From Candidatus Omnitrophota bacterium (GTDB taxonomy: Bacteria > Omnitrophota > Gorgyraeia > Zapsychrales > Zapsychraceae), in NCBI GenBank assembly GCA_020632515.1, contig JACKFK010000011.1, positions 1,284 to 65,283 of the forward strand: a stretch of DNA of 64,000 nucleotides, in the 5' to 3' direction. Shown one piece after another: positions 1 to 62,053 of the stretch (position 1 is the first letter of the stretch; every line of letters starts with the position of its first letter). The notes beneath the pieces are model-generated. The model was not told the DNA's origin, did not search any database, and worked only from the letters and a program-made list of their open reading frames with translations. A program made the position numbers and the translations under genes.

Positions 1-374
1 AGCTCATGCACGGTTCATTAATGTATCGAGATAAGAGATTTAGTGGATTTGATGCAGCCACAGCGATTGAAGTTATAGAACACTTGGATCCACCTCGTTT
101 GGCTGCTTTCGAAAGGGTATTATTTGAATTTGCAAAACCTAAGATGGCTGTCATTACCACTCCCAATGTCGAATATAATGTAATGTGGGAGAATTTACCC
201 GCTGGAAAGTTTAGGCATAACGATCATAGGTTTGAATGGACAAGAAAAGAATTTCAAGAATGGGCGTGTCGAGTGGCAGAGAAGTTTGGGTATGGTGTTA
301 AATACTTGCCTATTGGACCAGAAGATAAAAAAGTTGGTTCGCCAACACAAATGGCGATCTTTATAAAAGAATAA
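1..374 (+). CDS. hen1: Hen1 RNA 3'-terminal ribose 2'-O-methyltransferase, C-terminal part (5' end lies outside the window)
   Basis: The reading frame is open to the window edge. AIEVIEHLD and FRHNDHRFEWTR match the metal-binding E-x-x-E-H and H-R-F-E-W signatures of the bacterial Hen1 methyltransferase domain. The stop lies 2 nt before the pnkp start. Confidence 0.75.
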   Translation, partial: LMHGSLMYRDKRFSGFDAATAIEVIEHLDPPRLAAFERVLFEFAKPKMAVITTPNVEYNVMWENLPAGKFRHNDHRFEWTRKEFQEWACRVAEKFGYGVKYLPIGPEDKKVGSPTQMAIFIKE

Positions 375-375
375 G

Positions 376-3003
376 ATGGAAATTAAATTACCAAAATTAT
401 CATTAGTCGTATTAGTCGGGCCTTCGGGATCAGGAAAGTCGTCCTTTGCGAAAAAGCATTTTCTGCCAACCGAGATTCTGTCTTCAGATTATTGTCGTTC
501 GCTTGTTTCAGATGATGAGAATGATCAGAAAGTAACCTCAGAAGCCTTTGAAGTCTTGCATTTCATTGCTCGAAAAAGATTGGCAGCTGGTAAAATGACC
601 GTTATTGATGCGACAAATGTTCAGAAAGAAGCAAGAAAGCCATTAGTCGAATTAGCGAGAGAATTTCACTGTCTTCCTTGTGCTATCGTGTTTGACCTTC
701 CTCGCAGTGTTTGTCATGAAAGAAACAAAACCCGACCTGACCGTGATTTTGGACGACATGTCATTCAACAACAGATTTCACAAATGAAACGCAACATGCG
801 GAGTCTAAAATATGAAGGGTTCCGTCATATCTATCGTTTAAACTCTGAAGAGCAAGTTAATGAATCTTTTATTACTCGAACACCTTTATGGAATGATAAA
901 ACAGATGAAAAAGGGCCATTCGATATTATCGGCGACATTCATGGTTGTTGCGATGAGTTGGAAGAATTGTTGCAAAAACTTGGTTATGAAGTCAAAGGAC
1001 AGTCTGAGGGTGTGTTAGGGGGACCGATTTATTCTCATCCTGAAGGAAGAAAGGCTGTCTTCGTCGGTGATTTAGTTGATCGAGGTCCAAGAAACCTTGA
1101 TGCTATGAAGTTAGCCTATAACATGGTTAGTACAGAAAATGCTCTTTGTGTGCCTGGAAATCACGATATGAAGTTTATGCGCAAACTTCAGGGAAAAGAT
1201 GTTCAGATTACACATGGCTTAGCTGAAACATTGGCGGAAGTCGATGCTATTCCTGAAGAAACAAAAGCCGAATTTACGGAAGCAGCAAAGAAGTTTCTTT
1301 ATAGTTTGGTAAGCCATTATCTTCTTGACGGTGGAAAGTTAGTTGTATCTCATGCTGGATTAAAGCAAGAAATGCAAGGACGAGGTTCCGGAAAGGTTCG
1401 GGATTTTTGTCTTTATGGAGAGACAACAGGCGAAACCGATGAGTTTGGGTTGCCTGTTCGTTACAATTGGGCAGCGGAGTATCGAGGTCCAGCAATGGTT
1501 GTTTATGGCCATACTCCTGTTGTCGAGCCAGAGTGGTTAAATCGAACAGTCAACATTGACACAGGTTGTGTTTTTGGAGGCAAACTAACAGCCCTTCGTT
1601 ATCCTGAGAAAGAATTTGTAGAGGTTTCATCGAAGAAAATCTATTGTGAGCCTAAGAAGCCAATGGATTTTGACGATAAAGATAAACCAGTTTTAACTCA
1701 GCAACAGCATTTAGATGATCTATTGGATGCTGAAGATGTTATTGGCAAAAGGATCGTTTTAACTCGATTAAGATCAAACGTGACTATTCGAGAGGAGAAC
1801 GCTATTGCGGCATTAGAGGTTATGAGCAGATTTGCCATTAATCCTAAGTGGCTCATTTATTTGCCACCGACAATGTCACCTTCTGAAACAAGTCAAAAAG
1901 ATGGATATCTTGAATATCCTACAGAAGCATTTAGCTATTTTAGAAAGCTCGGTATCCCGAAAGTTATTTGTGAAGAGAAACATATGGGATCAAGAGCCGT
2001 TATTGTGATCTGTAAGGATGTGGATACATCAACGAAAAGGTTTGGAGTCGTTGAAAAAAAATTAGGCGTTATTTATACACGCACAGGCAGAAGTTTTTTT
2101 AATAATGATGAATTAGAACAACAATTTCTTGAGCGTTTAAAAGGCTCAATGGATAAGGCCAATTTTTGGGAGGAATTTGAAACAGACTGGGCGTGTTTTG
2201 ATTGCGAATTGATGCCCTGGTCTGAGAAAGCAAAGGAACTTTTAAAGACGCAATATGCAGCCGTCGGCTCAAGCGCTACGGCTTCATTAGCTGAGTCGGT
2301 CAAGCTTCTAAAAAAGACAGTTAAGCGAGGTGGCATCACAACAAAGAAATCTTCAAGAAGTGAGTCGTCGTTTGATACAGATATTAATCTGTTGATGGAT
2401 CGATTTGCTAATAGACAAGGGCTTATCAAGCAATATATATCCGCTTATCAACAATATTGTTGGCCTGTTCAGTCCATTGATGATTATAAATTAGCACCGT
2501 TTCATCTTTTGGCGACAGAAAAACAAGTTCATGTCGACAAGAATCATGAATGGCATATGAACACACTTGCTAAGATTTGTGAAAAAGATAAAAAAGTTTT
2601 GCTAGCAACTCCATTTAAGATTGTAGATGTTACCGACAAGGCTTCCGAAGATGAAGCTATTCAGTGGTGGATTCAACACACCAATAAGGGTGGTGAGGGA
2701 ATGGTTATTAAACCATTAGATTTTGTTGCTAAGGGAAAAAGAGGTTTAGTTCAGCCAGCATTAAAATGCCGAGGCAAAGAATATTTGAGAATCATTTATG
2801 GACCAGAATATTCGACGGATGAAAACCTTGAGCGACTGCGAAACAGAGGGCTTGGGACAAAACGTTCTTTGGCGATGCGTGAATTTGCTATTGGTATTGA
2901 AGGGTTGGAAAGATTTGTCAGAAAGGAACCATTAAGACGAGTCCATGAATGTACATTTGGTGTTTTAGCGCTTGAAAGCGAACCAGTTGATCCGAGGTTG
3001 TGA
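376..3003 (+). CDS. pnkp: Polynucleotide kinase-phosphatase (Pnkp): kinase + metallophosphoesterase + ligase-like adenylyltransferase
   Basis: 875 aa. P-loop GPSGSGKS at aa 15-22. Calcineurin-type phosphoesterase motifs GDIHGC, GDLVDRGP and GNHD. C-terminal module carries an EEKHMGSR lysine motif. Adjacent to hen1, as in the bacterial RNA repair cassette. Confidence 0.9.
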   Translation: MEIKLPKLSLVVLVGPSGSGKSSFAKKHFLPTEILSSDYCRSLVSDDENDQKVTSEAFEVLHFIARKRLAAGKMTVIDATNVQKEARKPLVELAREFHCLPCAIVFDLPRSVCHERNKTRPDRDFGRHVIQQQISQMKRNMRSLKYEGFRHIYRLNSEEQVNESFITRTPLWNDKTDEKGPFDIIGDIHGCCDELEELLQKLGYEVKGQSEGVLGGPIYSHPEGRKAVFVGDLVDRGPRNLDAMKLAYNMVSTENALCVPGNHDMKFMRKLQGKDVQITHGLAETLAEVDAIPEETKAEFTEAAKKFLYSLVSHYLLDGGKLVVSHAGLKQEMQGRGSGKVRDFCLYGETTGETDEFGLPVRYNWAAEYRGPAMVVYGHTPVVEPEWLNRTVNIDTGCVFGGKLTALRYPEKEFVEVSSKKIYCEPKKPMDFDDKDKPVLTQQQHLDDLLDAEDVIGKRIVLTRLRSNVTIREENAIAALEVMSRFAINPKWLIYLPPTMSPSETSQKDGYLEYPTEAFSYFRKLGIPKVICEEKHMGSRAVIVICKDVDTSTKRFGVVEKKLGVIYTRTGRSFFNNDELEQQFLERLKGSMDKANFWEEFETDWACFDCELMPWSEKAKELLKTQYAAVGSSATASLAESVKLLKKTVKRGGITTKKSSRSESSFDTDINLLMDRFANRQGLIKQYISAYQQYCWPVQSIDDYKLAPFHLLATEKQVHVDKNHEWHMNTLAKICEKDKKVLLATPFKIVDVTDKASEDEAIQWWIQHTNKGGEGMVIKPLDFVAKGKRGLVQPALKCRGKEYLRIIYGPEYSTDENLERLRNRGLGTKRSLAMREFAIGIEGLERFVRKEPLRRVHECTFGVLALESEPVDPRL

Positions 3004-5521: not shown

Positions 5522-5653
5522 TATGACATATTATTCAATTTTGTGTTATATGTTGTTTCCAACATGACGGGCAAGGTTATGTTGAACGGTAAAATAGGAG
5601 GGGCATCATGAAAAGGCATATTAAAAACAAGAAATCGGAGTTTTTTCGAACCG

Positions 5654-5856
5654 ATGAGTAAACGAAGACGAGGATATCCTTCCGAGACGAATGTCAAAAA
5701 AAGGAACCAGAGTAGTTCATGGAAATAAGGAGTTGTTCGAGAAATTAGGACGTAACGACCCTTGTCCATGCGGTTCAGGGAGGTTATTTTAAACGGTGTT
5801 GCATGAAGTCAAAAAAGTATGACGGTGAATTGAGAAATTATTACTTTAGAGAATAA
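5654..5856 (+). pseudogene. Small SEC-C-motif (PCPCGSG..KRCC) protein gene broken by two frameshifts
   Basis: Three frames concatenate to [16 protein letters not shown] / [29 protein letters not shown] / KRCCMKSKKYDGELRNYYFRE. The breaks fall at an A-run (about 5694-5701) and a T-run (about 5786-5789). The C-x-C-G-S-G...C-C zinc motif is split across frames. Confidence 0.4.
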
Positions 5857-5877
5857 TGCAACAAATACATATACAGC

Positions 5878-5909
5878 GGGCCTGAAATTTTCAGGTCCGT
5901 TGTTGTTTT
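5878..5909 (+). terminator. Rho-independent terminator
   Basis: GGGCCTG-AAATTTT-CAGGTCC hairpin (7 bp, one G-U pair) followed by GTTGTTGTTTT. Confidence 0.55.
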
Positions 5910-5910
5910 C

Positions 5911-5933
5911 GGACAATATACGGACAATGGAAT
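5911..5933 (+). repeat. Left copy of a perfect 23-bp direct repeat, GGACAATATACGGACAATGGAAT
   Basis: An identical 23-mer recurs at 17862-17884. It contains an internal GGACAAT duplication with 11-bp spacing. Confidence 0.9.
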
Positions 5934-6040
5934 ACCCACAAATAGGGCAGAAAACGGTCTAACAAGAGAGAATAAAATTTTTCGTAAGTGTCAGCAGTAG
6001 ATAAGATTATAGAAAATCAGCGAATAACTAAAAATATCAA

Positions 6041-6080
6041 ACCTTCGCTCATAACCTGAAGGTCACAGGTTCTCCCGCAA
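6041..6080 (+). pseudogene. Decayed 3'-half remnant of an initiator tRNA-Met gene
   Basis: GCTCATAACCtGAAGGTCaCAGGTTC...tCCCGCAA compares with the E. coli tRNA-fMet sequence GCTCATAACCCGAAGGTCGTCGGTTCAAATCCGGCCCCCGCAA. The T-loop and half of the T-stem are deleted, the 5' half is absent, and there is no cloverleaf. Confidence 0.55.
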
Positions 6081-6153
6081 TTTCTTAAGGTTAAAAATTG
6101 GGGTATTTATGGTTCAATAAAGGGTATTTTCTGACAGATAAGTTGGCAATATA

Positions 6154-6182
6154 TTGACAGGTTATCCAACATATGCTATAGT
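6154..6182 (+). promoter_or_regulatory. Sigma70-type promoter for the XRE-Panacea operon
   Basis: TTGACA (6154-6159), a 17-nt spacer, then TATAGT (6177-6182). The AAAGGAG RBS sits 9 nt before the ATG at 6219. Confidence 0.55.
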
Positions 6183-6218
6183 CCTACTATTGAAACCTGT
6201 GAAAAAGGAGCAAAATCT

Positions 6219-7013
6219 ATGAGCGAGAATTTTAATAAAAAATTAGGTCAAAGAATTAGAGAATTAAGGGGCCAATATGGATTTAATCAGGAGAAGGTTG
6301 CAAAACATTTGGGGATTAAGCGTACATCATTTTCTCAAATTGAGATTGGTGAACGAAAAATTAGTGTTGAAGAAATTGCCAAACTTTCAAAATTGTTCAA
6401 TATTCCAACCGATTCGCTTTTAGATTTAAATGCAGAAATAAAAGTTGAATTAATGAAAGAGCCTCCAAAGAAAGAAAAACAGGAATTAAGAATTAGTGTT
6501 CCTCAAAATAGGATAGACAAATTCAAGGAAGTTTTACTTTATATTTTGGATAGAGTCGGCTCAAAATCTAATGTTGGAGAAACAGTAATTTATAAATTGT
6601 TATACTTTATTGATTTTGATTTTTATGAACTTTATGAAGAGCAATTAATTGGTGCATCTTATCAAAAAAATCATTATGGGCCAACTCCAGTTGAGTTTGC
6701 AAAGATAGTAAGCGATATGGAGCAAAGTGAAGAGGTAGTAAAAGTAAAAGAACAATACTATCAATTTCCACAAACAAAATATTTACCATTGAGAAAACCT
6801 GATTTAAGTAAATTAAAAGCTAATGAAATTAAATTAATCGACGAGGTTCTAGAGAAATTGTCAGATTATAATGCTAATAAGATAAGTGAGTATTCGCATG
6901 ATGACGTTCCCTGGATGACAACGGATGAAGGAGAAATTATAGATTATGAATCAGTATTTTATCGCACCAAGCCATATTCCGTGAGGTCATACAGTGAAGA
7001 AGAAGTTCAATGA
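6219..7013 (+). CDS. XRE-family HTH fused to a Panacea (DUF4065/SocA-like) antitoxin domain
   Basis: N-terminal LGQRIRELRGQYGFNQEKVAKHLGIKRTSFSQIEIGERKISVEE is a Cro/C1 HTH. The C-terminal half carries VIYKLLYFIDFDFY...Y.KNHYGPTP, typical of DUF4065. Confidence 0.75.
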   Translation: MSENFNKKLGQRIRELRGQYGFNQEKVAKHLGIKRTSFSQIEIGERKISVEEIAKLSKLFNIPTDSLLDLNAEIKVELMKEPPKKEKQELRISVPQNRIDKFKEVLLYILDRVGSKSNVGETVIYKLLYFIDFDFYELYEEQLIGASYQKNHYGPTPVEFAKIVSDMEQSEEVVKVKEQYYQFPQTKYLPLRKPDLSKLKANEIKLIDEVLEKLSDYNANKISEYSHDDVPWMTTDEGEIIDYESVFYRTKPYSVRSYSEEEVQ

Positions 7014-8007: not shown

Positions 8008-8109
8008 TTGTGAACTGTATTTTTTTGAAGGTATTCCAATAAAAACTCCCTAATCATTCCCCCCCCATAATCGTTCCTCTCGCCAGGGGGCTGTGTTATA
8101 ATCGGATTT

Positions 8110-8313
8110 ATGCTCAAGAAAATGATTCCAGCGGCCACGTTCAGTGCTTTGGTTAAAGTTATCCGACGGGAGATTGAGGTATCCCGCACCCGGATTGAAC
8201 AGCAACCCGTGCTTACGTACTGGACGATCGGCGGCAATATCAATGCTTTCTTAAGCGACACAACGCGCCGGAGAAAAGTACAACCGCCGGACGCCGCGCC
8301 GCGGCCTGGGTAA
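8110..8313 (+). pseudogene. Fragment resembling the N-terminus of a DUF1016/YhcG-type PD-(D/E)xK nuclease
   Basis: IRREIEVSRTRIEQQPVLTYWTIGGNINAFL resembles the YhcG N-terminal pattern (I..AR......VN..LV.LYW.IG..I). The ORF is truncated and sits in a GC-rich patch. Confidence 0.3.
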
Positions 8314-8315
8314 CT

Positions 8316-8495
8316 GTGCGTTTGAAAGATTGCCAGTTTGTAGTGATCAAGACTTACAAAACAGATAAATATGCCAGGTATCTGGTGGATGTGTTTTATC
8401 AGTCGGGGGAAACGGATCCTAACGTGGTGGCGCGGGAAGGCGCGTATTTAAATTCCCAGCTGCTGGAAGAAGGCCTGGCGGTAAAATGGAGTTGA
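8316..8495 (+). pseudogene. C-terminal fragment of a thermonuclease (SNase-like) gene
   Basis: There is no start codon. KTDKYARYLVDVFYQSGETDPNVVAREGAYLNSQLLEEGLAVKW matches the SNase C-terminal pattern (D.YgR.La.v......N..Lv.eGlA). GC is well above the flanks. Confidence 0.4.
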
Positions 8496-8656
8496 ACGAG
8501 GTAAAGGAGAGATTGGTATGAGTGTCTCCTTAAAGGTGATGAATACTTATTTTACTTAATGCCGATTAAGCATGTGAATGTGGGGTCGAAGTTAGATAAG
8601 AAGGTGTTTGGTTTCAATAATGAAATATATAAAGTAACAGTAAATAATCTGAATAG

Positions 8657-8685
8657 TTGACAGGTGAATGGTTGAGTGGTATACT
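8657..8685 (+). promoter_or_regulatory. Promoter of the MarR-1 operon, with repeated RGTTRA units in the spacer
   Basis: TTGACA (8657-8662), a 17-nt spacer, then TATACT (8680-8685). The spacer reads GGTGAATGGTTGAGTGG, and AATAGTTGA sits immediately upstream. Confidence 0.6.
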
Positions 8686-17988: not shown

Positions 17989-18080
17989 TATACCCATTTG
18001 GGTATAATATAATTAAATATATGCCTTTTAGGGTATAATAATTTATAAAAATATTGAAATTATACCCGATAGGTGGTATA
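17989..18080 (+). promoter_or_regulatory. hipBST promoter/operator region with three TATACCC-N-GGGTATA type inverted repeats
   Basis: TATACCC-ATTT-GGGTATA (17989-18006, perfect), TATATGCC-TTTTA-GGGTATA (18018-18037) and TATACCC-GATAGGT-GGTATA (18061-18080). TATAAT boxes at 18003-18008 and 18034-18039 overlap the first two operators. Confidence 0.6.
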
Positions 18081-18089
18081 TTAAAAGCA

Positions 18090-18371
18090 ATGAATAAGAT
18101 AAATGAACAAATAAAACGATTAAGAAAGAATTCGGGATTAACTCAAGTCGAATTTTCTAAACGATCTGGTGTAGGTTTAAGATTTCTTAGAGAGCTTGAA
18201 CAGGGGAAAACAACTGTGCGTTTGGATAAAGTAAACCAAGTGTTAGAATTTTTAGGTCACCATTTAGAAATAGGTAAAGATGATCGAAGAATGATAACAA
18301 AAGGTGTAACAGCTCATGAAGATAAAATTCCCGAGGGGAGTGCTATATTTAAAGAAATACCAGAAAAATAA
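18090..18371 (+). CDS. hipB: HipB-like XRE-family HTH protein
   Basis: IKRLRKNSGLTQVEFSKRSGVGLRFLRELEQGKTTVRLDKVNQVLEFLG is a Cro/C1 HTH. The start is moved to 18090 because the ORF-track start covers the third operator. Confidence 0.75.
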   Translation: MNKINEQIKRLRKNSGLTQVEFSKRSGVGLRFLRELEQGKTTVRLDKVNQVLEFLGHHLEIGKDDRRMITKGVTAHEDKIPEGSAIFKEIPEK

Positions 18372-18376
18372 TAATT

Positions 18377-18727
18377 ATGAATAAAGAGAAGATTTATAGA
18401 AGTGCAAAAGTTTATTATAAAGATGAATTCGCGGGAGTCTTAAAAGAAGCAGAGAAAGGGTATATTTTTCAATATGATAAAGATTTCATGAAAAAAAATA
18501 TATCGATATCTGTAACGCTGCCTGTTCAAGAGGAGCCTTTTGAGTCAGAAAAATTATTTCCATTTTTTCGAGGGTTACTTCCTGAAGGTTGGTATTTGAA
18601 TATTGTTAGTACAACACAGCATGTTGATACTAAAGATTGGTTTGGAGTGCTCTTAGCAACTACAAGTGTAGATACAATTGGTGCAGTTACTGTACGTAAA
18701 GATACTCATAATAAAAATAATGGATAA
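18377..18727 (+). CDS. hipS: HipS-like protein (stand-alone HipA N-terminal subdomain)
   Basis: 116 aa. YKDEFAGVL...YIFQYDKDF...ISVTLP...PFFRGLLPEGW matches the HipA N-terminal 'couple_hipA' pattern. Confidence 0.7.
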   Translation: MNKEKIYRSAKVYYKDEFAGVLKEAEKGYIFQYDKDFMKKNISISVTLPVQEEPFESEKLFPFFRGLLPEGWYLNIVSTTQHVDTKDWFGVLLATTSVDTIGAVTVRKDTHNKNNG

Positions 18728-19586
18728 CGCTAAATTATTAAAGAAAATTTTTAACATACCTAAATGGCCTAGTATTGATTTCAGCTTATCAGAGGTTTCA
18801 TTAGAAGCTCAGGAGTTGGCAGGAAAGCTATCTATATCAGGAGTGCAGCCAAAATTGTCTGTAAAATTGGATAGAAGGAAAAATGCGTTGATTTCAACAA
18901 TCAAAGGGGGAGAATTTATTTTAAAGCCTCAAACATCAGTTTATCCGAATATACCAGAAAATGAGCAATGTTGTATGGATATGGCAGCGGCGTTGGGTAT
19001 TGCTGTACCTGATCATTGCTTATTACCTCTGAAAGATAATAGTTTGGCTTATATTGTAAAGAGGTATGACAGAAATAAGGTGGATAAATATAACCAAGAA
19101 GATTTTCAGCAAATATTAGAAAAAGACGACAAATATATGGGTTCTGTTGAAGAAATTTGCCGCGCAATTAATTCGATTTCAGCAGTTCCCGGTTTGGATG
19201 TTCAACTTTTATACGAGCGGGTAATTTTTAATTTTATAATAGGTAATGGCGATGCGCATTTTAAGAATTACTCTATGATTACATATAATGATATCGATAG
19301 GCGATTAGCTCCCGCCTATGATTTAGTGTGTTCAAAATTAATTATCCCTAAAGGAAAAGATTCCGCCTTAGCTATTAATGGAAAGCAAAATAATCTTAAA
19401 CGGAAAGATTTTGATATATTGGGCGACTATTGTAAGATTCCTGAAAAAATAAGATATGAGAAATTTGATCAGAAATTCGATATTATGAGAAAAATGATAG
19501 AATCCTCTCAAGTAGATCAAGAGAAGAAAAAAAATTTCATTGAAATAATAAAGGAACGATTACATCGGTTAAAGTTGTCAGAATAA
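18720..19586 (+). CDS. hipT: HipT-like Ser/Thr kinase toxin (HipA kinase core lacking N-subdomain 1)
   Basis: SISGVQPKLSV (Gly-rich loop region), GNGDAHFKNYS (catalytic D-x-H-x-K-N) and APAYDLV are present. The ATG overlaps the hipS stop by 8 nt. Confidence 0.75.
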   Translation: MDNAKLLKKIFNIPKWPSIDFSLSEVSLEAQELAGKLSISGVQPKLSVKLDRRKNALISTIKGGEFILKPQTSVYPNIPENEQCCMDMAAALGIAVPDHCLLPLKDNSLAYIVKRYDRNKVDKYNQEDFQQILEKDDKYMGSVEEICRAINSISAVPGLDVQLLYERVIFNFIIGNGDAHFKNYSMITYNDIDRRLAPAYDLVCSKLIIPKGKDSALAINGKQNNLKRKDFDILGDYCKIPEKIRYEKFDQKFDIMRKMIESSQVDQEKKKNFIEIIKERLHRLKLSE

Positions 19587-28693: not shown

Positions 28694-28720
28694 TTAAGAA
28701 GATAGTGTTAGAAAAAGTAA

Positions 28721-28758
28721 GGGGATGGTTTCAAAACGGAACCATCCCCTTTTGTTTG
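28721..28758 (+). terminator. Rho-independent terminator after nrfA
   Basis: GGGGATGGTT-loop-AACCATCCCC followed by TTTTGTTTG. Confidence 0.8.
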
Positions 28759-28881
28759 ACAACTTGCTTCCATGAATTATAATAAATCGTTTATTATAGA
28801 AGCTATTCTAAGGGTTTTATTACAAATTTAAGATATAAAAATAAGTATAAATGCATTCGAAATCTCCCTTTTAAAGGTTTT

Positions 28882-32114: not shown

Positions 32115-32687
32115 GTGGATAAGAATCGGATGGAGGCTTTCAGCGATGGGGTGATTGCAATTATTATCACCATCATGGTGTTAGAGATGAAGGCTCCGCA
32201 CGGCACCAGCTGGAAATCGTTGGAGCCTGTTTTTCCGGCTTTTTTAAGTTATATTCTCAGTTTTACTTATTTGGCTATTTATTGGAATAATCACCATCAT
32301 CTTTTAAAAGCAGTGAAAGAAGTTGACGGACGCGTATTATGGGCGAATCTTCATTTACTGTTTTGGCTTTCCTTAATTCCGTTTGCCAGCGCCTGGATGG
32401 GTGAAAATCACTTTGCGCAAATTCCGGTTATTCTTTATGGAATCGATTTATTGTGCGCAGCAGTAAGCTATCAATTGCTTGTTCAAGCGCTATTGGCTCG
32501 GCATGGACGTGAATCTCTTTTAGCTAAAGCGATTGGGAAGGATGTTAAGGGAAAGATTTCAATTGTAATTTATATTTTGGCAATCGGAGTATCTTTTCTT
32601 CATCCGCTATGGGCGTGTTTTTTATATGCGTTAGTTGCGGTGATGTGGATTGTTCCGGATCAAAGAATCGAACGGGTTTTGAAGTAA
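32115..32687 (+). CDS. TMEM175/DUF1211-family potassium channel-like membrane protein
   Basis: RMEAFSDGVIAIIITIMVLE is the family signature (R.eaFSDGV.AI..T). Six TM spans. GTG start. Confidence 0.75.
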   Translation: MDKNRMEAFSDGVIAIIITIMVLEMKAPHGTSWKSLEPVFPAFLSYILSFTYLAIYWNNHHHLLKAVKEVDGRVLWANLHLLFWLSLIPFASAWMGENHFAQIPVILYGIDLLCAAVSYQLLVQALLARHGRESLLAKAIGKDVKGKISIVIYILAIGVSFLHPLWACFLYALVAVMWIVPDQRIERVLK

Positions 32688-32744
32688 ATTATATTTGAGG
32701 TAATAATTAGTAAAAATTAATTTTTACTTTCTTTGATTTTAAAA

Positions 32745-32777
32745 GAGATTGACAATCATTATTCGATTGGATAATAT
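32745..32777 (+). promoter_or_regulatory. Sigma70-type promoter overlapped by a Fur-box-like sequence
   Basis: TTGACA (32749-32754), a 17-nt spacer, then TAATAT (32772-32777). GAGATTGACAATCATTATT (32745-32763) matches 15 of 19 positions of the Fur consensus GATAATGATAATCATTATC. Confidence 0.55.
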
Positions 32778-32783
32778 TTAGAA

Positions 32784-32960
32784 AAATTTAAAAGGACTGA
32801 TGTTTTCCTTGATCTCTCCAGAATTTCTCAGATTTATGTGAGGGGCAAAGCCGGGTAATGTGTCATTACAGGCTTTAAGGAAAAATAATAATAATGCATG
32901 TGTGTCAAATGGGCTCTTCTGTGGAAGAGTTTTCTTATTGAGCATACATGCGTTTTTTTG
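32784..32960 (+). ncRNA. Candidate Fur-controlled small RNA or terminated leader (about 175 nt)
   Basis: Lies downstream of the promoter above. Hairpin GCCGGGTAATG-TGT-CATTACAGGC. Terminal structure GCATGTGTG(32896-32904)...CTCTTC-TGTG-GAAGAG...CATACATGC(32943-32951) followed by GTTTTTTT. Only ORFs without recognisable motifs or an RBS lie inside. Confidence 0.45.
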
Positions 32961-32971
32961 TAGAGGTATAA

Positions 32972-33592
32972 ATGCTTATAGAAATTTATCGATATATGCA
33001 AGTAATATGGTCGGGGAGGAATTGTCAGAAAAACCAATTGATAAAAATTTGGCGTTTAGCAGGTGTTTATTTTAAACTAGATAATCATATAAAAAGATTC
33101 CGACGGAAGACTAATATCAATTGTTTGAAAGGTTGTGGAAAGTGCTGTGAACGTGTGTATGTGGAGACCGCTCCTTTGGAAATGATTCCTTTGGCAGCCA
33201 TTATTCTAAAAAGGGCTAAAAGCGGATTGTGGATTCGTAAGTTGATGAATGTCTCTGTTGAAGGCCGATGTATGTTTTATCGTAAATTGAAAGACGTTCC
33301 AGGTAAAGGTCGTTGTCTAATTTATCCTTTGCGACCGCTCACATGTCGGCTTTTTGGGTTTGCCGCGAAGAAAAATAAGAATGGACAAAAGCAGTGGGTG
33401 ACTTGTTCATTGTTAAAAATGTTAGCGGGTTCCAATCAAGTAGAGATTACAGTAGAAATTAATAAAGGATTGTCAATCCCCGTAGCTGGTTCTTATCGTT
33501 GGTTAGTGCATGACATAGGTTCTTCTGCAGAAAGTCGTTTATTGCCGCTTCCCTTTGCTTTATATGAGGCGATGGCGATTCTTTCCCGATAA
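32972..33592 (+). CDS. YkgJ-family (CxxCxxCC) cysteine-cluster protein
   Basis: The C-LKG-C-GK-C-C motif followed by further Cys residues (RCMFY, RCLIYPLRPLTCRLFG) is typical of UPF0153/YkgJ. The exact start is uncertain. Confidence 0.6.
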   Translation: MLIEIYRYMQVIWSGRNCQKNQLIKIWRLAGVYFKLDNHIKRFRRKTNINCLKGCGKCCERVYVETAPLEMIPLAAIILKRAKSGLWIRKLMNVSVEGRCMFYRKLKDVPGKGRCLIYPLRPLTCRLFGFAAKKNKNGQKQWVTCSLLKMLAGSNQVEITVEINKGLSIPVAGSYRWLVHDIGSSAESRLLPLPFALYEAMAILSR

Positions 33593-33687
33593 AAGGTGCT
33601 ATTTTGTTATACGGATGCTATTCATAATGAAATATCACTTTTTTTTTATTGTCACTGGTTGTAAAATAAAACAAAAAGGAGATAAAT

Positions 33688-34194
33688 ATGCTAACGAAAA
33701 AAATTGAAAAAGCGTTAAATGATCAAATTGTATTAGAAGCTTATGCGTCCAATTCTTATTTAGCTATGGCCAGCTGGTGTGAAGGTAAAGGTTTGCGAGG
33801 GGCGACAAAATTCTACTACGCGCAATCCGACGAGGAAAGGGTTCATATGTTGAAACTCGTTAAATATGTGAATGCATCCGGTGGAAGCGCGAATATTACA
33901 GCGGTCAAGTCTCCGGAAAGCAGTTATAAAACCCTGCAGGAAACATTTGAGGCGGCGTTAAAACAAGAAAAAGCTGTAAGTCAGTCGATTAATCAATTAG
34001 TGGAACTAACTTTTAATGATAAAGATTATACAACGCATAATTTTCTGCAATGGTATGTTCAGGAACAGCATGAAGAAGAAGCTTTATTTCGATCAATCTT
34101 AGACTTGTTTGCCTTGGCCGATAAAGACGGAAAAAGTCTGATTATTATTGATAATGAAATTATGAAAATTCGGAATGAAGTTGAAGCTGGGTGA
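33688..34194 (+). CDS. ftn: Non-heme ferritin
   Basis: LNDQIVLEAYASNSYLAMASWC...AQSDEERVHMLKLVKYV...QWYVQEQHEEE carries the ferroxidase-centre residues (E, E-x-x-H, E, Q/E). Confidence 0.85.
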   Translation: MLTKKIEKALNDQIVLEAYASNSYLAMASWCEGKGLRGATKFYYAQSDEERVHMLKLVKYVNASGGSANITAVKSPESSYKTLQETFEAALKQEKAVSQSINQLVELTFNDKDYTTHNFLQWYVQEQHEEEALFRSILDLFALADKDGKSLIIIDNEIMKIRNEVEAG

Positions 34195-37628: not shown

Positions 37629-37647
37629 AAAGTCAATTTGATTTAAG

Positions 37648-37682
37648 GGGCTGACAAATTATATTTTGTCAGCCCTTTTTTA
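37648..37682 (+). terminator. Rho-independent terminator
   Basis: GGGCTGACAAA-loop-TTTGTCAGCCC followed by TTTTTT. Confidence 0.8.
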
Positions 37683-37687
37683 ATGCG

Positions 37688-37715
37688 TTGACAGTCGATT
37701 AGATCTTAGTATAAT
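37688..37715 (+). promoter_or_regulatory. Promoter of radC
   Basis: TTGACA (37688-37693), a 16-nt spacer, then TATAAT (37710-37715). Confidence 0.6.
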
Positions 37716-37768
37716 CATATTAATCTTCATCCCCCTTTCGGCTCTTCTTAAAATGAAAGGGGTTTTTT

Positions 37769-38461
37769 ATGCGCTATGCAAAATCAATTTGTCACTGGCC
37801 TCGTGATGATCGCCCGCGGGAAAAGCTTGCCAAATACGGAGAACAATCTTTAAATAACTCTGAGCTTCTTGCCATTTTATTACGAACAGGTATTAAAGGT
37901 GAAAGTGCTGTTGACTTAGCCCGACGTATTCTACAGAAATTTAAAACATTTCGTGAAATGAGTGCTGCTGGGCCGGAGTTTTGGATGAATATTAAAGGCC
38001 TGGGACCAGCTAAAATTGCGCAGATTAAAGCTGCGCTTGAAATTGGCCGACGTTTCCGGGAGGATGAGCATTTACAACAATCATTTCAAATCAAAAATGC
38101 AGAAGATGCTGTGAAGATTTTAATGCCGCAGATGCGGGATTTGAAAAAGGAGATTTTCAAGACGATTTATTTGGATGGTTCGCATCGGGTTATTCAAATT
38201 ATTACGGAAGCTCAAGGGACGGTTAATTTTGCTAATCCTATCATTCGCGAAATCTTGCAAAAAGCGTTACAATTTTGCGCGGTCGCCATTATTTGTGCGC
38301 ATAACCATCCTTCAGGTGATATTTCGCCAAGTTCGGAAGATCGCCAGTTTACGCGGCGGTTGGCTGATGCGGGACGTATAATGCAAGTTACATTACTTGA
38401 TCATATTATTATTGGAGATAATCAGTCTTATAGTTTTGCGGATCAAGGAGAAATGAAATGA
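37769..38461 (+). CDS. radC: RadC-like JAB/MPN domain protein
   Basis: N-terminal DRPREKL...LSNSELLAILLRTG and the JAMM motif HNHPSGDISPSSED. Confidence 0.85.
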   Translation: MRYAKSICHWPRDDRPREKLAKYGEQSLNNSELLAILLRTGIKGESAVDLARRILQKFKTFREMSAAGPEFWMNIKGLGPAKIAQIKAALEIGRRFREDEHLQQSFQIKNAEDAVKILMPQMRDLKKEIFKTIYLDGSHRVIQIITEAQGTVNFANPIIREILQKALQFCAVAIICAHNHPSGDISPSSEDRQFTRRLADAGRIMQVTLLDHIIIGDNQSYSFADQGEMK

Positions 38462-38649: not shown

Positions 38650-38815
38650 AGTCTTTTGAAAAAGGCAAACTATCCGAAAGGATAATCCAAAGATTTTTTT
38701 GGATCATCAATAAGTATTATTGGTGGGGCGCAAAGCTAATAGAACCTTAATTTTCTTTAAGTATATTTTAGAGAAAATATGGTAGTCAGCTGCCAATGAG
38801 TCGATTTTTAGACTT
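38650..38815 (+). promoter_or_regulatory. c-di-GMP-I (GEMM-I)-like riboswitch aptamer with an inserted pair of hairpins
   Basis: GGCAAAC-TATCC-GAAA-GGATA (38664-38685), GGGGCGCAAAGC (38725-38736) and GGTAGTCAGCTGCC (38781-38794) parallel GGCAAACC..CGAAAG..GGGACGCAAAGCC...GGUAGGUAGCGGGG of the Vc2 GEMM-I RNA. The closing helix is AGTCT/AAAAA (38650-38663) with TTTTT/AGACT (38805-38814). Confidence 0.6.
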
Positions 38816-38818
38816 TTT

Positions 38819-38848
38819 AGCCCATCAAAATTTTTGATGGGCTTTTTT
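38819..38848 (+). terminator. Intrinsic terminator forming the riboswitch expression platform
   Basis: AGCCCATCAAAA-TT-TTTGATGGGCT followed by TTTTTT, about 100 nt upstream of the 38953 start. Confidence 0.75.
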
Positions 38849-38952: not shown

Positions 38953-40872
38953 ATGAAATTATTAAACAATCAAAGAAAATTAATAACTTTTCTTACTGTT
39001 GGTGCTTTTGTTGTTTTTTCTTTTCCCTTAAATGTATTTGCTCAGGCGCAATTTGGAGCAGATAATTTTGTTGAAGGTGTGGGAGTTCCAGAAGGAGAGT
39101 TTGTTGAAGGGGCAGAAGTTCCAGAAGGAGAATTTGTCGAAGGGGCTGGTTCTCCAGAGGGAGAGTTTGTTGAAGGTGCTGAAGTTCCAGAGGGAGAATT
39201 CGTTGAAGGGGCAGAAGTTCCAGAAGGAGAGTTTGTCGAAGGCGCAGAAGTTCCAGAAGGAGAATTTGTCGAAGGTGCTGGTGCTCCAGAGGGAGAATTC
39301 GTTGAAGGGGCAGAAGTTCCAGAAGGAGAGTTTGTTGAAGGGGCAGAAGTTCCAGAAGGAGAATTCGTTGAAGGTGCAGAAGTTCCGGAAGGAGAATTTG
39401 TCGAAGGGGCTGTTGAAGGTGAAGAGCTTGTTGGAAAAAATGATAGTGTGAACAAATCAAATATACCAAATACACAACAAGCAAAACAATTAACTATTGA
39501 TCAGTCAAAAGAATTAATTGCTTTGCCTCAATCTGAAATGAAAGAATTACAACGGGCTTTGGCAGAAATGGCAAGAGATTCGTCGCAGAAAGATTTGTAT
39601 CAAGAGTTAGGAGGTATTTTAGCTGCCGAAGTACAACTTGTCATTGAACCAGAGGCATTATCAAAGAATGATGGGGTAAAGGGAATTAATCCTGCAAATG
39701 AAAATGGATTTCAAGGGCCTGGACCAAATGGAGAGATGCTAGTAGATGCTCCTCAACAGGGAACAGGAGCTCCAATGCCCGGTGAAATGGCTTTAGGTCC
39801 ACAAGGTCCATTGATGGGAGGCGGAGTAGGTCCTGAAGGTATTATGGGCGCACCAGGCGAGCAGGGGGTAATGATGATGGGGATGGATGGTGGTGTTAGG
39901 CCAGGGATGGAAGGACCCCGTATCATGGATTTTGGTGAATTTATGCAAGGTGTTCAAATGCAATCTATGGGATTGGAAATGGAAAAGCATGGGATGTCTA
40001 AAGAAAAAGTAAATGAATTAATGGATAAGGGAATGGATATGTTAGCCCAAGCTAATGGAAATCAAAATGTTTTTGGTGAAATTGTTCAGCTAGCCATGAA
40101 TTTCTCACAAGGCCCTCAAGGACCGATGGGACCAGCTCCTGATGGTAATATGGGGCCGCCTATACCAGGACAAGATGGTATGATGGGGCCAGGGCCGATG
40201 ATGGGACAAGATGGTATGATAGGACCGGGACCAGGTGGAGAAATGGGGATGTTTGATATGCAGGGTTTTGCTCAAGCCTTAGGATTTGATCCAAATGGAA
40301 TGGGACCTGCAGGACCTAATGGTCCAAATGAATTTGGTCCCCATGATGGTGTTATGGGACCGGCACCGGGAGAATTTTTTGGACCCGGACCAGGAGATGG
40401 ATTTTTTGGACCAGCGCCAGGAGAGTTTTTTGGACCAGAAGGTGATTTTATAGGGCCTCCTCCTGGAGAATTTGAGTTTGTAGAGCCTCCAGAGTTTGAT
40501 CCTGATAATCCTCCTGGACCCCCGCCAGGATGTGATAGTGCTTGTCTTTTTGAAACAGCGTTAAATGAAGCGCGGGTGGTGGCCACTATTGTAGGTTTTA
40601 ATCCCGCAGATAATGGAATTACTAATAGAAATTTAGAAAATCCAGCAACAAATTATGTAGTTAATTTAGCTGGAATTGCAAATGCTGATTTAACAAATAA
40701 ATATGCTCAATTGAATCCAGGGATTCAGCAGCAAATATATTTAGAATCACTATTTGATCAATATAGTGCTTCTGATGAAGCTAGAAAAGATGCTATTTGT
40801 GATTTGAATCATGATCATGGGCATTCTCATACGAGTTTGACAGAACAATGTCATACTGATGGGAATAATTAA
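38953..40872 (+). CDS. Secreted repeat protein: 11-aa acidic tandem repeats, a Gly/Pro/Met-rich low-complexity region, and a Cys/His-containing C-terminal domain
   Basis: GGAGAAAAAA RBS and signal peptide ...FPLNVFAQA. Contains (FVEGAEVPEGE)x10, a long G/P/M-rich segment with recurring GEF(F) units, and a C-terminal DLNHDHGHSHTSLTEQCHTDGNN. Confidence 0.7.
   Translation: MKLLNNQRKLITFLTVGAFVVFSFPLNVFAQAQFGADNFVEGVGVPEGEFVEGAEVPEGEFVEGAGSPEGEFVEGAEVPEGEFVEGAEVPEGEFVEGAEVPEGEFVEGAGAPEGEFVEGAEVPEGEFVEGAEVPEGEFVEGAEVPEGEFVEGAVEGEELVGKNDSVNKSNIPNTQQAKQLTIDQSKELIALPQSEMKELQRALAEMARDSSQKDLYQELGGILAAEVQLVIEPEALSKNDGVKGINPANENGFQGPGPNGEMLVDAPQQGTGAPMPGEMALGPQGPLMGGGVGPEGIMGAPGEQGVMMMGMDGGVRPGMEGPRIMDFGEFMQGVQMQSMGLEMEKHGMSKEKVNELMDKGMDMLAQANGNQNVFGEIVQLAMNFSQGPQGPMGPAPDGNMGPPIPGQDGMMGPGPMMGQDGMIGPGPGGEMGMFDMQGFAQALGFDPNGMGPAGPNGPNEFGPHDGVMGPAPGEFFGPGPGDGFFGPAPGEFFGPEGDFIGPPPGEFEFVEPPEFDPDNPPGPPPGCDSACLFETALNEARVVATIVGFNPADNGITNRNLENPATNYVVNLAGIANADLTNKYAQLNPGIQQQIYLESLFDQYSASDEARKDAICDLNHDHGHSHTSLTEQCHTDGNN
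39067..39415 (+). repeat. In-frame 33-nt tandem repeat, about 10.5 copies
   Basis: The unit is TTT GTT GAA GGN GCA GAA GTT CCA GAA GGA GAR. Most differences between copies are third-position synonymous changes; units 1, 3 and 7 also carry amino-acid replacements (VG, GS, GA for AEV). Confidence 0.95.
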
Positions 40873-61739: not shown

Positions 61740-61789
61740 GTTATTTTAAAAAAAATCTTGACAATTAGTTTAATTAGTTATATTTTGGA

Positions 61790-61884
61790 ACTTAAATAAG
61801 TTTATAGTTAACTTATTTAAATGAGCGGCACGAGATCAGATGAATCCAAAGCCCAATTCTTTTTGTAATGAGTTGGGTTTTTTA
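61790..61884 (+). ncRNA. Candidate small RNA A (promoter at 61758, two hairpins, intrinsic terminator)
   Basis: TTGACA at 61758-61763, with TATATT or TATTTT 15-17 nt downstream. Hairpin TTAAATAAGTT...AACTTATTTAA. Terminator CCCAATTC-loop-GAGTTGGG followed by TTTTTTATTT. No ORF. Confidence 0.45.
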
Positions 61885-61974
61885 TTTAAACGGATTTTGA
61901 TAAAGGCTTGAAAGCCTATATTTTTCAATAGTTTAAATGGTTGAATAGTTGCTTAGTATTAGGATTCAACTATA

Positions 61975-62053
61975 CAACATTTAGAGGACAGAGATCAACG
62001 CATCCAGAGCCCATTTTCCTATCGAAGTTAATAGGGAGTGGGTTTCTTTTTTT
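61975..62053 (+). ncRNA. Candidate small RNA B (paralog of A)
   Basis: The core GAGGACAGAGATCAACGCATCCAGAGCCCATTT aligns with GAGCGGCACGAGATCAGATGAATCCAAAGCCCAATT of element A. It has a 12-bp terminator stem (62010-62042) followed by TTTCTTTTTTT. Confidence 0.4.

Follow-up and report, generated by a model that had tools for sequence, protein, structure and literature searches.

A terminated RNA leader upstream of ykgJ-like and ferritin genes in Candidatus Omnitrophota is a candidate transcription attenuator

RyhB (RF00057), PrrF, FsrA, IsrR, NrrF and IsaR1 are free-standing genes. Listeria SreA and SreB are products of SAM riboswitches that act in trans. In the bfd-bfr arrangement, bfd (bacterioferritin-associated ferredoxin) lies upstream of the bacterioferritin gene bfr and is repressed by Fur, without a long terminated leader. 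Our literature search found no published Omnitrophota small RNA or orphan riboswitch, apart from mentions of riboswitches in a paper on a c-di-NMP receptor. The element described here lies in a 284-nt intergenic region (32688-32971) of a 64,000-nt window, that is, the whole stretch of AT-rich DNA (32-43% GC) analysed from a Candidatus Omnitrophota MAG. Like RyhB and the other small RNAs named with it (about 90-200 nt), the element combines a similar length with a Fur-box-like sequence over the promoter, a terminator with a long U tail and iron-related neighbours; unlike them, it had no similarity to any Rfam family, its Fur box was marginal and it forms, physically, the leader of the gene that follows. 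As with SreA and SreB, the product of premature termination in a leader, at about 100-200 nt, could build up and take a second role in trans, but those two RNAs derive from known riboswitches with defined ligands, whereas no ligand or target could be assigned to the ykgJ leader. The locus shares with bfd-bfr a small Cys-cluster gene directly upstream of an iron-storage gene and a promoter with a Fur-like box, but the protein is a YkgJ (PF03692) and not a Bfd, and the pairing of YkgJ with ferritin was not conserved, since the YkgJ homologs adjoined SulP/CorA or other genes. A further comparison came from within the window, where a c-di-GMP-I riboswitch (38654-38848 with its terminator) has the same order of TTGACA promoter, 5' domain, terminator and gene, with expression only by read-through. 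This riboswitch precedes a 639-aa ORF (38953-40872) with no Pfam domain, and the distance from terminator to ATG is about 100 nt, compared with 12 nt in the ykgJ leader. The leader also differed from terminator-type riboswitches in that no recognised aptamer, antiterminator or conservation was found and its 5' domain was not significantly stable.

Several metagenome assemblies contained identical proteins and DNA, as did contig JAGQKR010000257 of assembly GCA_020430025.1. The genes around the leader were identified using Pfam (Table 1), with a GT2 glycosyltransferase gene next after the ferritin gene. The ferritin gene had no convincing promoter of its own, and it is probably co-transcribed with, or partly insulated from, the ykgJ-like gene, from which it is separated by a weak hairpin. 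The original prediction, which described a promoter-to-terminator unit of about 175 nt adjoining a CxxCxxCC/YkgJ gene and a ferritin gene, gained in-silico support, the neighbours being assigned by Pfam. Among genome representatives, the nearest relatives of the ferritin (33688-34194) belonged to Flavobacteriales/Bacteroidota (51-53% identity, versus 49% for Omnitrophota), an affinity that could reflect horizontal acquisition or poor sampling. Across the window (1-64000) there was a strong GC skew, positive throughout (0.15-0.33), and the + strand carried 57 of about 60 genes. Elsewhere in the window, a PNKP-type RNA repair enzyme (kinase-phosphatase-ligase, 376-3003) lay beside a methyltransferase fragment, the two together within 6-3003, a SocA/Panacea-HTH antitoxin-like gene was located at 6219-7013, and an HTH-HipA(N)-HipA(C) toxin-antitoxin module was located at 18054-19586.

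Table 1. Positions of the leader, its parts and its neighbours in the 64,000-nt window
Feature	Positions	Strand	Details
TMEM175-type K+ channel gene	32115-32687		upstream of the intergenic region; Pfam
Perfect 20-nt AT-rich palindrome AGTAAAAATTAATTTTTACT, then TTCTTTGATTTT	32709-32728		between the TMEM175 stop and the promoter
Fur-box-like sequence GAGATTGACAATCATTATT	32745-32763	+	15/19 positions of GATAATGATAATCATTATC; overlaps the -35 and the spacer
Sigma-70-type promoter	32749-32777	+	-35 TTGACA 32749-32754, 17-nt spacer, -10 TAATAT 32772-32777; 10/12 consensus positions
Single-stranded A/U-rich 5' tail (predicted)	32784-32802	+	unpaired probabilities 0.6-0.9; SD-like AAGGA 32792-32796, ATG 32800
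Upstream ORF, 13 codons	32800-32841	+	ATG to TGA; encodes MFSLISPEFLRFM*; spans P1 and P2
Three-way junction (predicted)	32803-32884	+	P1 32803-32810/32877-32884, P2 32811-32845, P3 32847-32876; pair probabilities 0.5-1.0
Single-stranded A/U-rich linker	32885-32892	+	within AAAAAUAAUAAUAAU (repeated AAN triplets)
Intrinsic terminator	32893-32959	+	13-bp basal stem 32893-32905/32942-32954, apical hairpin 32911-32932, T7 32953-32959
SD and start codon of the ykgJ-like gene	32962-32974	+	AGAGG 32962-32966; ATG 32972-32974
ykgJ-like gene (YkgJ-family CxxCxxCC Cys-cluster protein, 206 aa)	32972-33592	+	Pfam PF03692, E = 9e-10
AT-rich hairpin and T9 between ykgJ and ferritin	33593-33647	+	weak, terminator-like
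Ferritin gene (168 aa)	33688-34194	+	Pfam PF00210, E = 8e-40
c-di-GMP-I riboswitch (RF01051)	38654-38797		46.5 bits; own TTGACA promoter 38598, terminator 38819-38848

The near-consensus promoter that had been predicted (TTGACA, 17 nt, TAATAT) was present at its expected position, from which we infer a transcription start at about 32784. A perfect TTGACA with at least 10 of 12 matching positions overall occurred at nine sites in the window, and eight of the nine were intergenic, which places such promoters above chance. Intergenic promoters at 28756, 37688 and 38598 were of one class with the leader promoter, and two other promoters of the class directly followed canonical GC-rich terminators (28719-28785 and 37645-37714). 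Since only a weak AT-rich hairpin followed the TMEM175 gene, the transcription unit appeared to start afresh at 32749. The 20-nt palindrome in this interval was a single copy in the window, where 0.05 matches were expected at up to 3 mismatches, and it may be either a weak TMEM175 terminator or an operator centred at about -65 from the inferred transcription start. Other promoters of the TTGACA type were found at the ends of two long intergenic regions, 5522-6218 (697 nt, promoter at 6154) and 8008-8667 (660 nt, 45% GC, promoter at 8657), neither of which contained a tRNA or an Rfam match. A TTGACA-17-TATTTT promoter at 61758 was followed by terminator-like hairpins with T-runs at about 61850-61883 and 62008-62053; the space between the hairpins held no ORF reaching 90 aa, and the region (61758-62053), flanked by a CMAS gene and a convergent DUF2231 gene, is a candidate small RNA or micropeptide unit.

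The strongest structural signal in the leader was its terminator. The compound stem followed by GTTTTTTT at 32952-32959 that the original prediction described was confirmed, the stem spanning 32893-32954, with a free energy of -26.8 kcal/mol (z = -5.4), above chance, and none of 200 shuffled sequences folded as well. In a permissive scan that flagged many intragenic sites too, it had the lowest free energy among the T-run-adjacent hairpins in the 64 kb, where the c-di-GMP riboswitch terminator was its equal. Three G.U pairs made the structure specific for the + strand (-52.4 kcal/mol, versus -39.4 kcal/mol on the - strand). Prefix folding showed that the 5' domain and the terminator folded independently. 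Prefix folds, constrained folds and duplex searches revealed no antiterminator or mutually exclusive fold, the best rival structures reaching -13 to -16 kcal/mol versus -26.8 kcal/mol for the terminator, and termination looked constitutive because no antiterminator was found. A long-range anti-SD pairing (32812-32817/32962-32967) appeared in one minimum-free-energy fold with an ensemble probability of only about 0.15 and was rejected.

The position of the terminator relative to the ykgJ-like gene pointed to the function of the element. The T-run ended at 32959, 2 nt before the SD and 12 nt before the ATG. The ATG at 32972 was taken as the true start because the N-terminus of the protein (MLIEIYRYMQVIW...) is conserved, its alignment with homologs P0002 and P0003 (49% identity) beginning at residue 1. 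No other ykgJ promoter was found, there was no room for one between terminator and SD, and transcription from the weak promoter-like sequences inside the leader (32860-32892) would begin upstream of the 5' arm of the terminator or where that arm begins. Since no promoter fits between the terminator and the SD, every ykgJ transcript must read through the terminator; the RNA would thus be the 5' leader of ykgJ and the hairpin an attenuator, whatever the terminated product does. We give a probability of about one half to the attenuator reading, in which this cis-acting 5' leader attenuates transcription of the ykgJ-like gene and probably that of the ferritin gene too. An attenuating leader had been the fallback in the original prediction, and it became the best-supported reading. 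As in a riboswitch or attenuator, the leader separates a promoter from the first gene and bears its intrinsic terminator before the start codon. Leader terminators are in use elsewhere in this genome, in the c-di-GMP-I riboswitch, and a terminator-like hairpin adjoins the RadC ATG. Counted against the attenuator were the lack of an antiterminator, the weak folding of the 5' domain, the lack of an Rfam match, and the lack of homologs and of a conserved aptamer with covariation.

In the mechanism that we propose, RNA polymerase would start at about 32784 from the TTGACA/TAATAT promoter and would transcribe the 19-nt open tail, the three-way-junction domain and the A/U-rich linker before meeting the very stable terminator, the U-run of which ends 2 nt before the SD. 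Most transcripts would end there as an RNA of about 175 nt, and ykgJ would be expressed only by read-through. Termination could be modulated by a factor bound to the 5' domain or by a general control of read-through, and a repressor, of the Fur family or another, may control the promoter from a site over the -35. If read-through is regulated, a simple RNA switch is less likely than a factor that targets the 5' domain or the polymerase; termination may also be simply constitutive and leaky. The terminated RNA of about 175 nt may accumulate and have a second role in trans as a 5'-UTR-derived small RNA.

The 5' domain gave a weaker signal than the terminator. The original prediction of a short structured RNA held for the strong terminator fold, but the 5' 109 nt alone were not significantly structured (z = -1.58; 11 of 200 shuffled sequences folded equally well), and several other terminator-bearing intergenic regions in the window reached similar or better z-scores. 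The hairpin placed at 32851-32875 exists and spans 32847-32876, with its core at 32850-32873, so that the original position was about 1 nt off. No IRE-like (aconitase-binding) loop was visible in the leader sequence. Rfam cmscan of the whole window at gathering thresholds, and of 32600-33750 at E <= 10, gave only chance-level matches in the region (E >= 3.6), so that the proposed covariance-model check matched no family even at E <= 10. The prediction that no ORF with a ribosome-binding site lay inside also stood only in part, since a 13-codon ORF with AAGGA was present, although with a poor spacing of 3 nt between the AAGGA and its ATG. Translation of this ORF might remodel P1 and P2 and so influence termination or ykgJ translation, or its product might be a functional micropeptide. 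Its start codon and the AAGGA fall within the one stretch of the leader that is strongly single-stranded, and the ORF spans both helices. Besides the short spacing, however, the ORF ends about 52 nt before the 5' arm of the terminator, so that a ribosome cannot reach the terminator, no antiterminator is present for leader-peptide attenuation, and the peptide contains no run of regulatory codons. The other small ORF in the leader (ATG 32895) is destroyed by a common allele, T32895C, its start being ACG in three of five assemblies, and it was rejected. Control by the upstream ORF is therefore highly improbable and the least likely of the readings considered. The first residues of the ORF (MFSLI...) resembled the N-terminus of homolog P0003 (MFSSI...) at four of five positions, with 8 nt shared, but this similarity was not relied on.

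The original prediction interpreted the element as a possible RyhB-like regulator. In this reading it would be a stand-alone small RNA repressed by Fur, made under iron limitation and pairing with mRNAs of iron-using or iron-storing proteins, and ykgJ would receive incidental read-through. The 15/19 match to the classical Fur box over the promoter was present as predicted. Among the nine intergenic TTGACA promoters it was the best match, the next reaching 13, and its chance was about 7.5e-4 per promoter window under a composition-based null. In the whole window, however, three matches of at least 15/19 were observed, versus 0.96 +/- 1.0 in shuffled sequences, and the other two were inside genes. 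In the 7-1-7 form of the Fur box the site scored 11/14, a score shared by the 11 others of the 12 sites listed. Of the 15 matching positions, six were supplied by TTGACAAT, an extended -35 present in four of the nine promoters examined, and ATTGACAA was also present in the ykgJ promoters of two homologous loci (L010 and L012), both without a Fur box. No Fur, Hfq or iron-uptake genes and no Fur regulon that could calibrate the motif were found in the 64-kb window. As judged from these matches, the Fur-box similarity of the leader is only marginally above chance, and Fur-family control of the promoter is possible, the match being suggestive only. The Fur-box-like sequence also holds an exact palindrome, GATTGACAATC (GATTGnCAATC; 32747-32757), on the -35. 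Only two exact copies of it occurred in the 64 kb; the second (33468-33478), 721 bp downstream, was inside ykgJ and coded for G-L-S-I. The pair may be a sign of a different regulator or a paired operator, or may be due to chance.

Other properties of the RNA would fit a small RNA that acts in trans. The unit from promoter to terminator is discrete, at about 175 nt; its layout is modular, with an open 5' tail, an A/U-rich linker of AAN repeats beside a terminator with U7, and an anti-SD-like CUCUCC; and termination looks constitutive, with no antiterminator. A ribosome-profiling study listed E. coli ykgJ among the genes repressed by RyhB (PMC4666370), which shows that YkgJ-type proteins can be iron-sparing targets elsewhere; the listing says nothing about the leader RNA itself. 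Against a free-standing small RNA, 12 nt separate the end of the terminator from the ykgJ ATG, and no other promoter was found for the gene. The predicted pairing with ferritin mRNA, which the original prediction had suggested as a check, was weak: with crude duplex energy models, the ferritin start region (-10.5 to -13.4 kcal/mol) was among the weakest predicted partners of the 53-59 start regions in the window, and iron proteins were not enriched, in a test of low power. A duplex match at the YkgJ start region proved to be self-complementarity with the terminator and was rejected, and beyond it no pairing of the leader RNA with the ferritin or ykgJ start regions was predicted. In addition, a promoter repressed by Fur that feeds an Fe-S-type protein and a ferritin would have the wrong sign unless termination is near-complete. 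With no Rfam match, no homolog or paralog, a marginal Fur box and poor ferritin pairing, the RyhB-like role was left unsupported, and a stand-alone Fur-repressed small RNA seems unlikely. The combined reading, in which one Omnitrophota lineage has a dual-function riboregulator with a Fur-family-controlled RNA acting in trans on the mRNAs of iron proteins and a ligand- or protein-gated three-way junction controlling read-through into the YkgJ-type Fe-S protein and ferritin, appears more doubtful still.

Comparative searches placed the leader in a single lineage. Among 5.8 billion proteins, no relative of the ykgJ product was found between 49% and 100% identity, and a metagenome scan returned only YkgJ relatives at 30-37%. 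The loci of the 49% homologs (L010, L012) had a 70-nt upstream region with a TTGACA promoter about 50 nt before the ATG and no leader, which indicated that ykgJ is normally the first gene of its own unit. The leader was absent upstream of the 49% (L010-L012) and 37% (L013, L033, L034) homologs examined, the upstream regions of L033 and L034 being short. Upstream of the 37%-identical homolog in L013, a small ORF (1925-2070) with a good SD encoded a Lys/Ala-rich peptide ending in HGCSCCCSE, a predicted Cys-rich micro-protein. The ferritin relatives, at most 53% identical and mostly from Bacteroidota, did not have the leader, and the TMEM175 relatives showed neither synteny nor a leader. Neither blastn nor nhmmer nor a covariance model built on the 5' domain detected paralogs in the window or homologs in up to 39 related loci, and the conservation and covariation that the original prediction had proposed to check in relatives did not appear within this scope. 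Five assemblies of the same species differed at one intergenic position, T32895C, which converts a U.G pair to C-G at the base of the terminator, keeping the pairing, and removes the ATG of the second small ORF. Population SNPs were rejected as evidence of constraint because diversity was too low, at about one SNP per 1-2 kb, which also makes the invariance of the rest of the leader uninformative.

Since the YkgJ homologs had no leader, the segment of about 172 nt appeared to be a lineage-specific addition between promoter and gene. It may accordingly be an insertion or relic with no dedicated regulation, its hairpin being a constitutive, leaky terminator or insulator that keeps expression low and also ends TMEM175 transcripts. 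The promoter-AAAGGA-ATG order of the homologs is mirrored by promoter-AAAGGA-ATG(32800) in the leader, where the upstream ORF stands in the same place relative to the promoter as the start of ykgJ does in L010 and L012; the pattern looks like the displacement of an original start. The weakly structured 5' domain and the lack of an alternative structure would agree with an insertion, as would the lack of a strong terminator for TMEM175. The 5' UTR of the RadC gene (37686-37771) also bears an apparently unconditional terminator-like hairpin: a TTGACA/TATAAT promoter is followed by the hairpin CCCCCTTTC...GAAAGGGGTTTTTT, which holds the SD and ends exactly at the ATG (37769), and it is a further leader of the window to carry a hairpin of the terminator-like or SD-sequestering kind. 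Searches of the window for a paralogous copy, a repeat or a mobile element were negative, however: the segment had no second copy there, and no hallmarks of a mobile element, such as terminal repeats or further copies, were identified. The five independent assemblies were identical except for the one pair-preserving SNP, although their diversity was too low for this to weigh much, and a hairpin of such extreme stability and + strand preference suggests that selection has acted on the RNA. An insertion with a leaky terminator is thus about as unlikely as the Fur-controlled small RNA, and the two readings rank together behind the attenuating leader.

The attenuating leader is an orphan, although its kind of feature is already known, and specialists would not be surprised by it. 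Its strong terminator is known from a single lineage and lacks comparative backing; at this stage the element is of value for annotation and as a candidate for metatranscriptome checks. If the dual-function reading were true, the RNA might be the first regulator of its kind, an iron-responsive RNA, to be reported from the uncultured Omnitrophota. Should iron or some other signal act through the leader to gate the Cys-cluster protein and ferritin, the element would offer a first handle on RNA regulation and iron homeostasis in Omnitrophota, a phylum without a cultured model.
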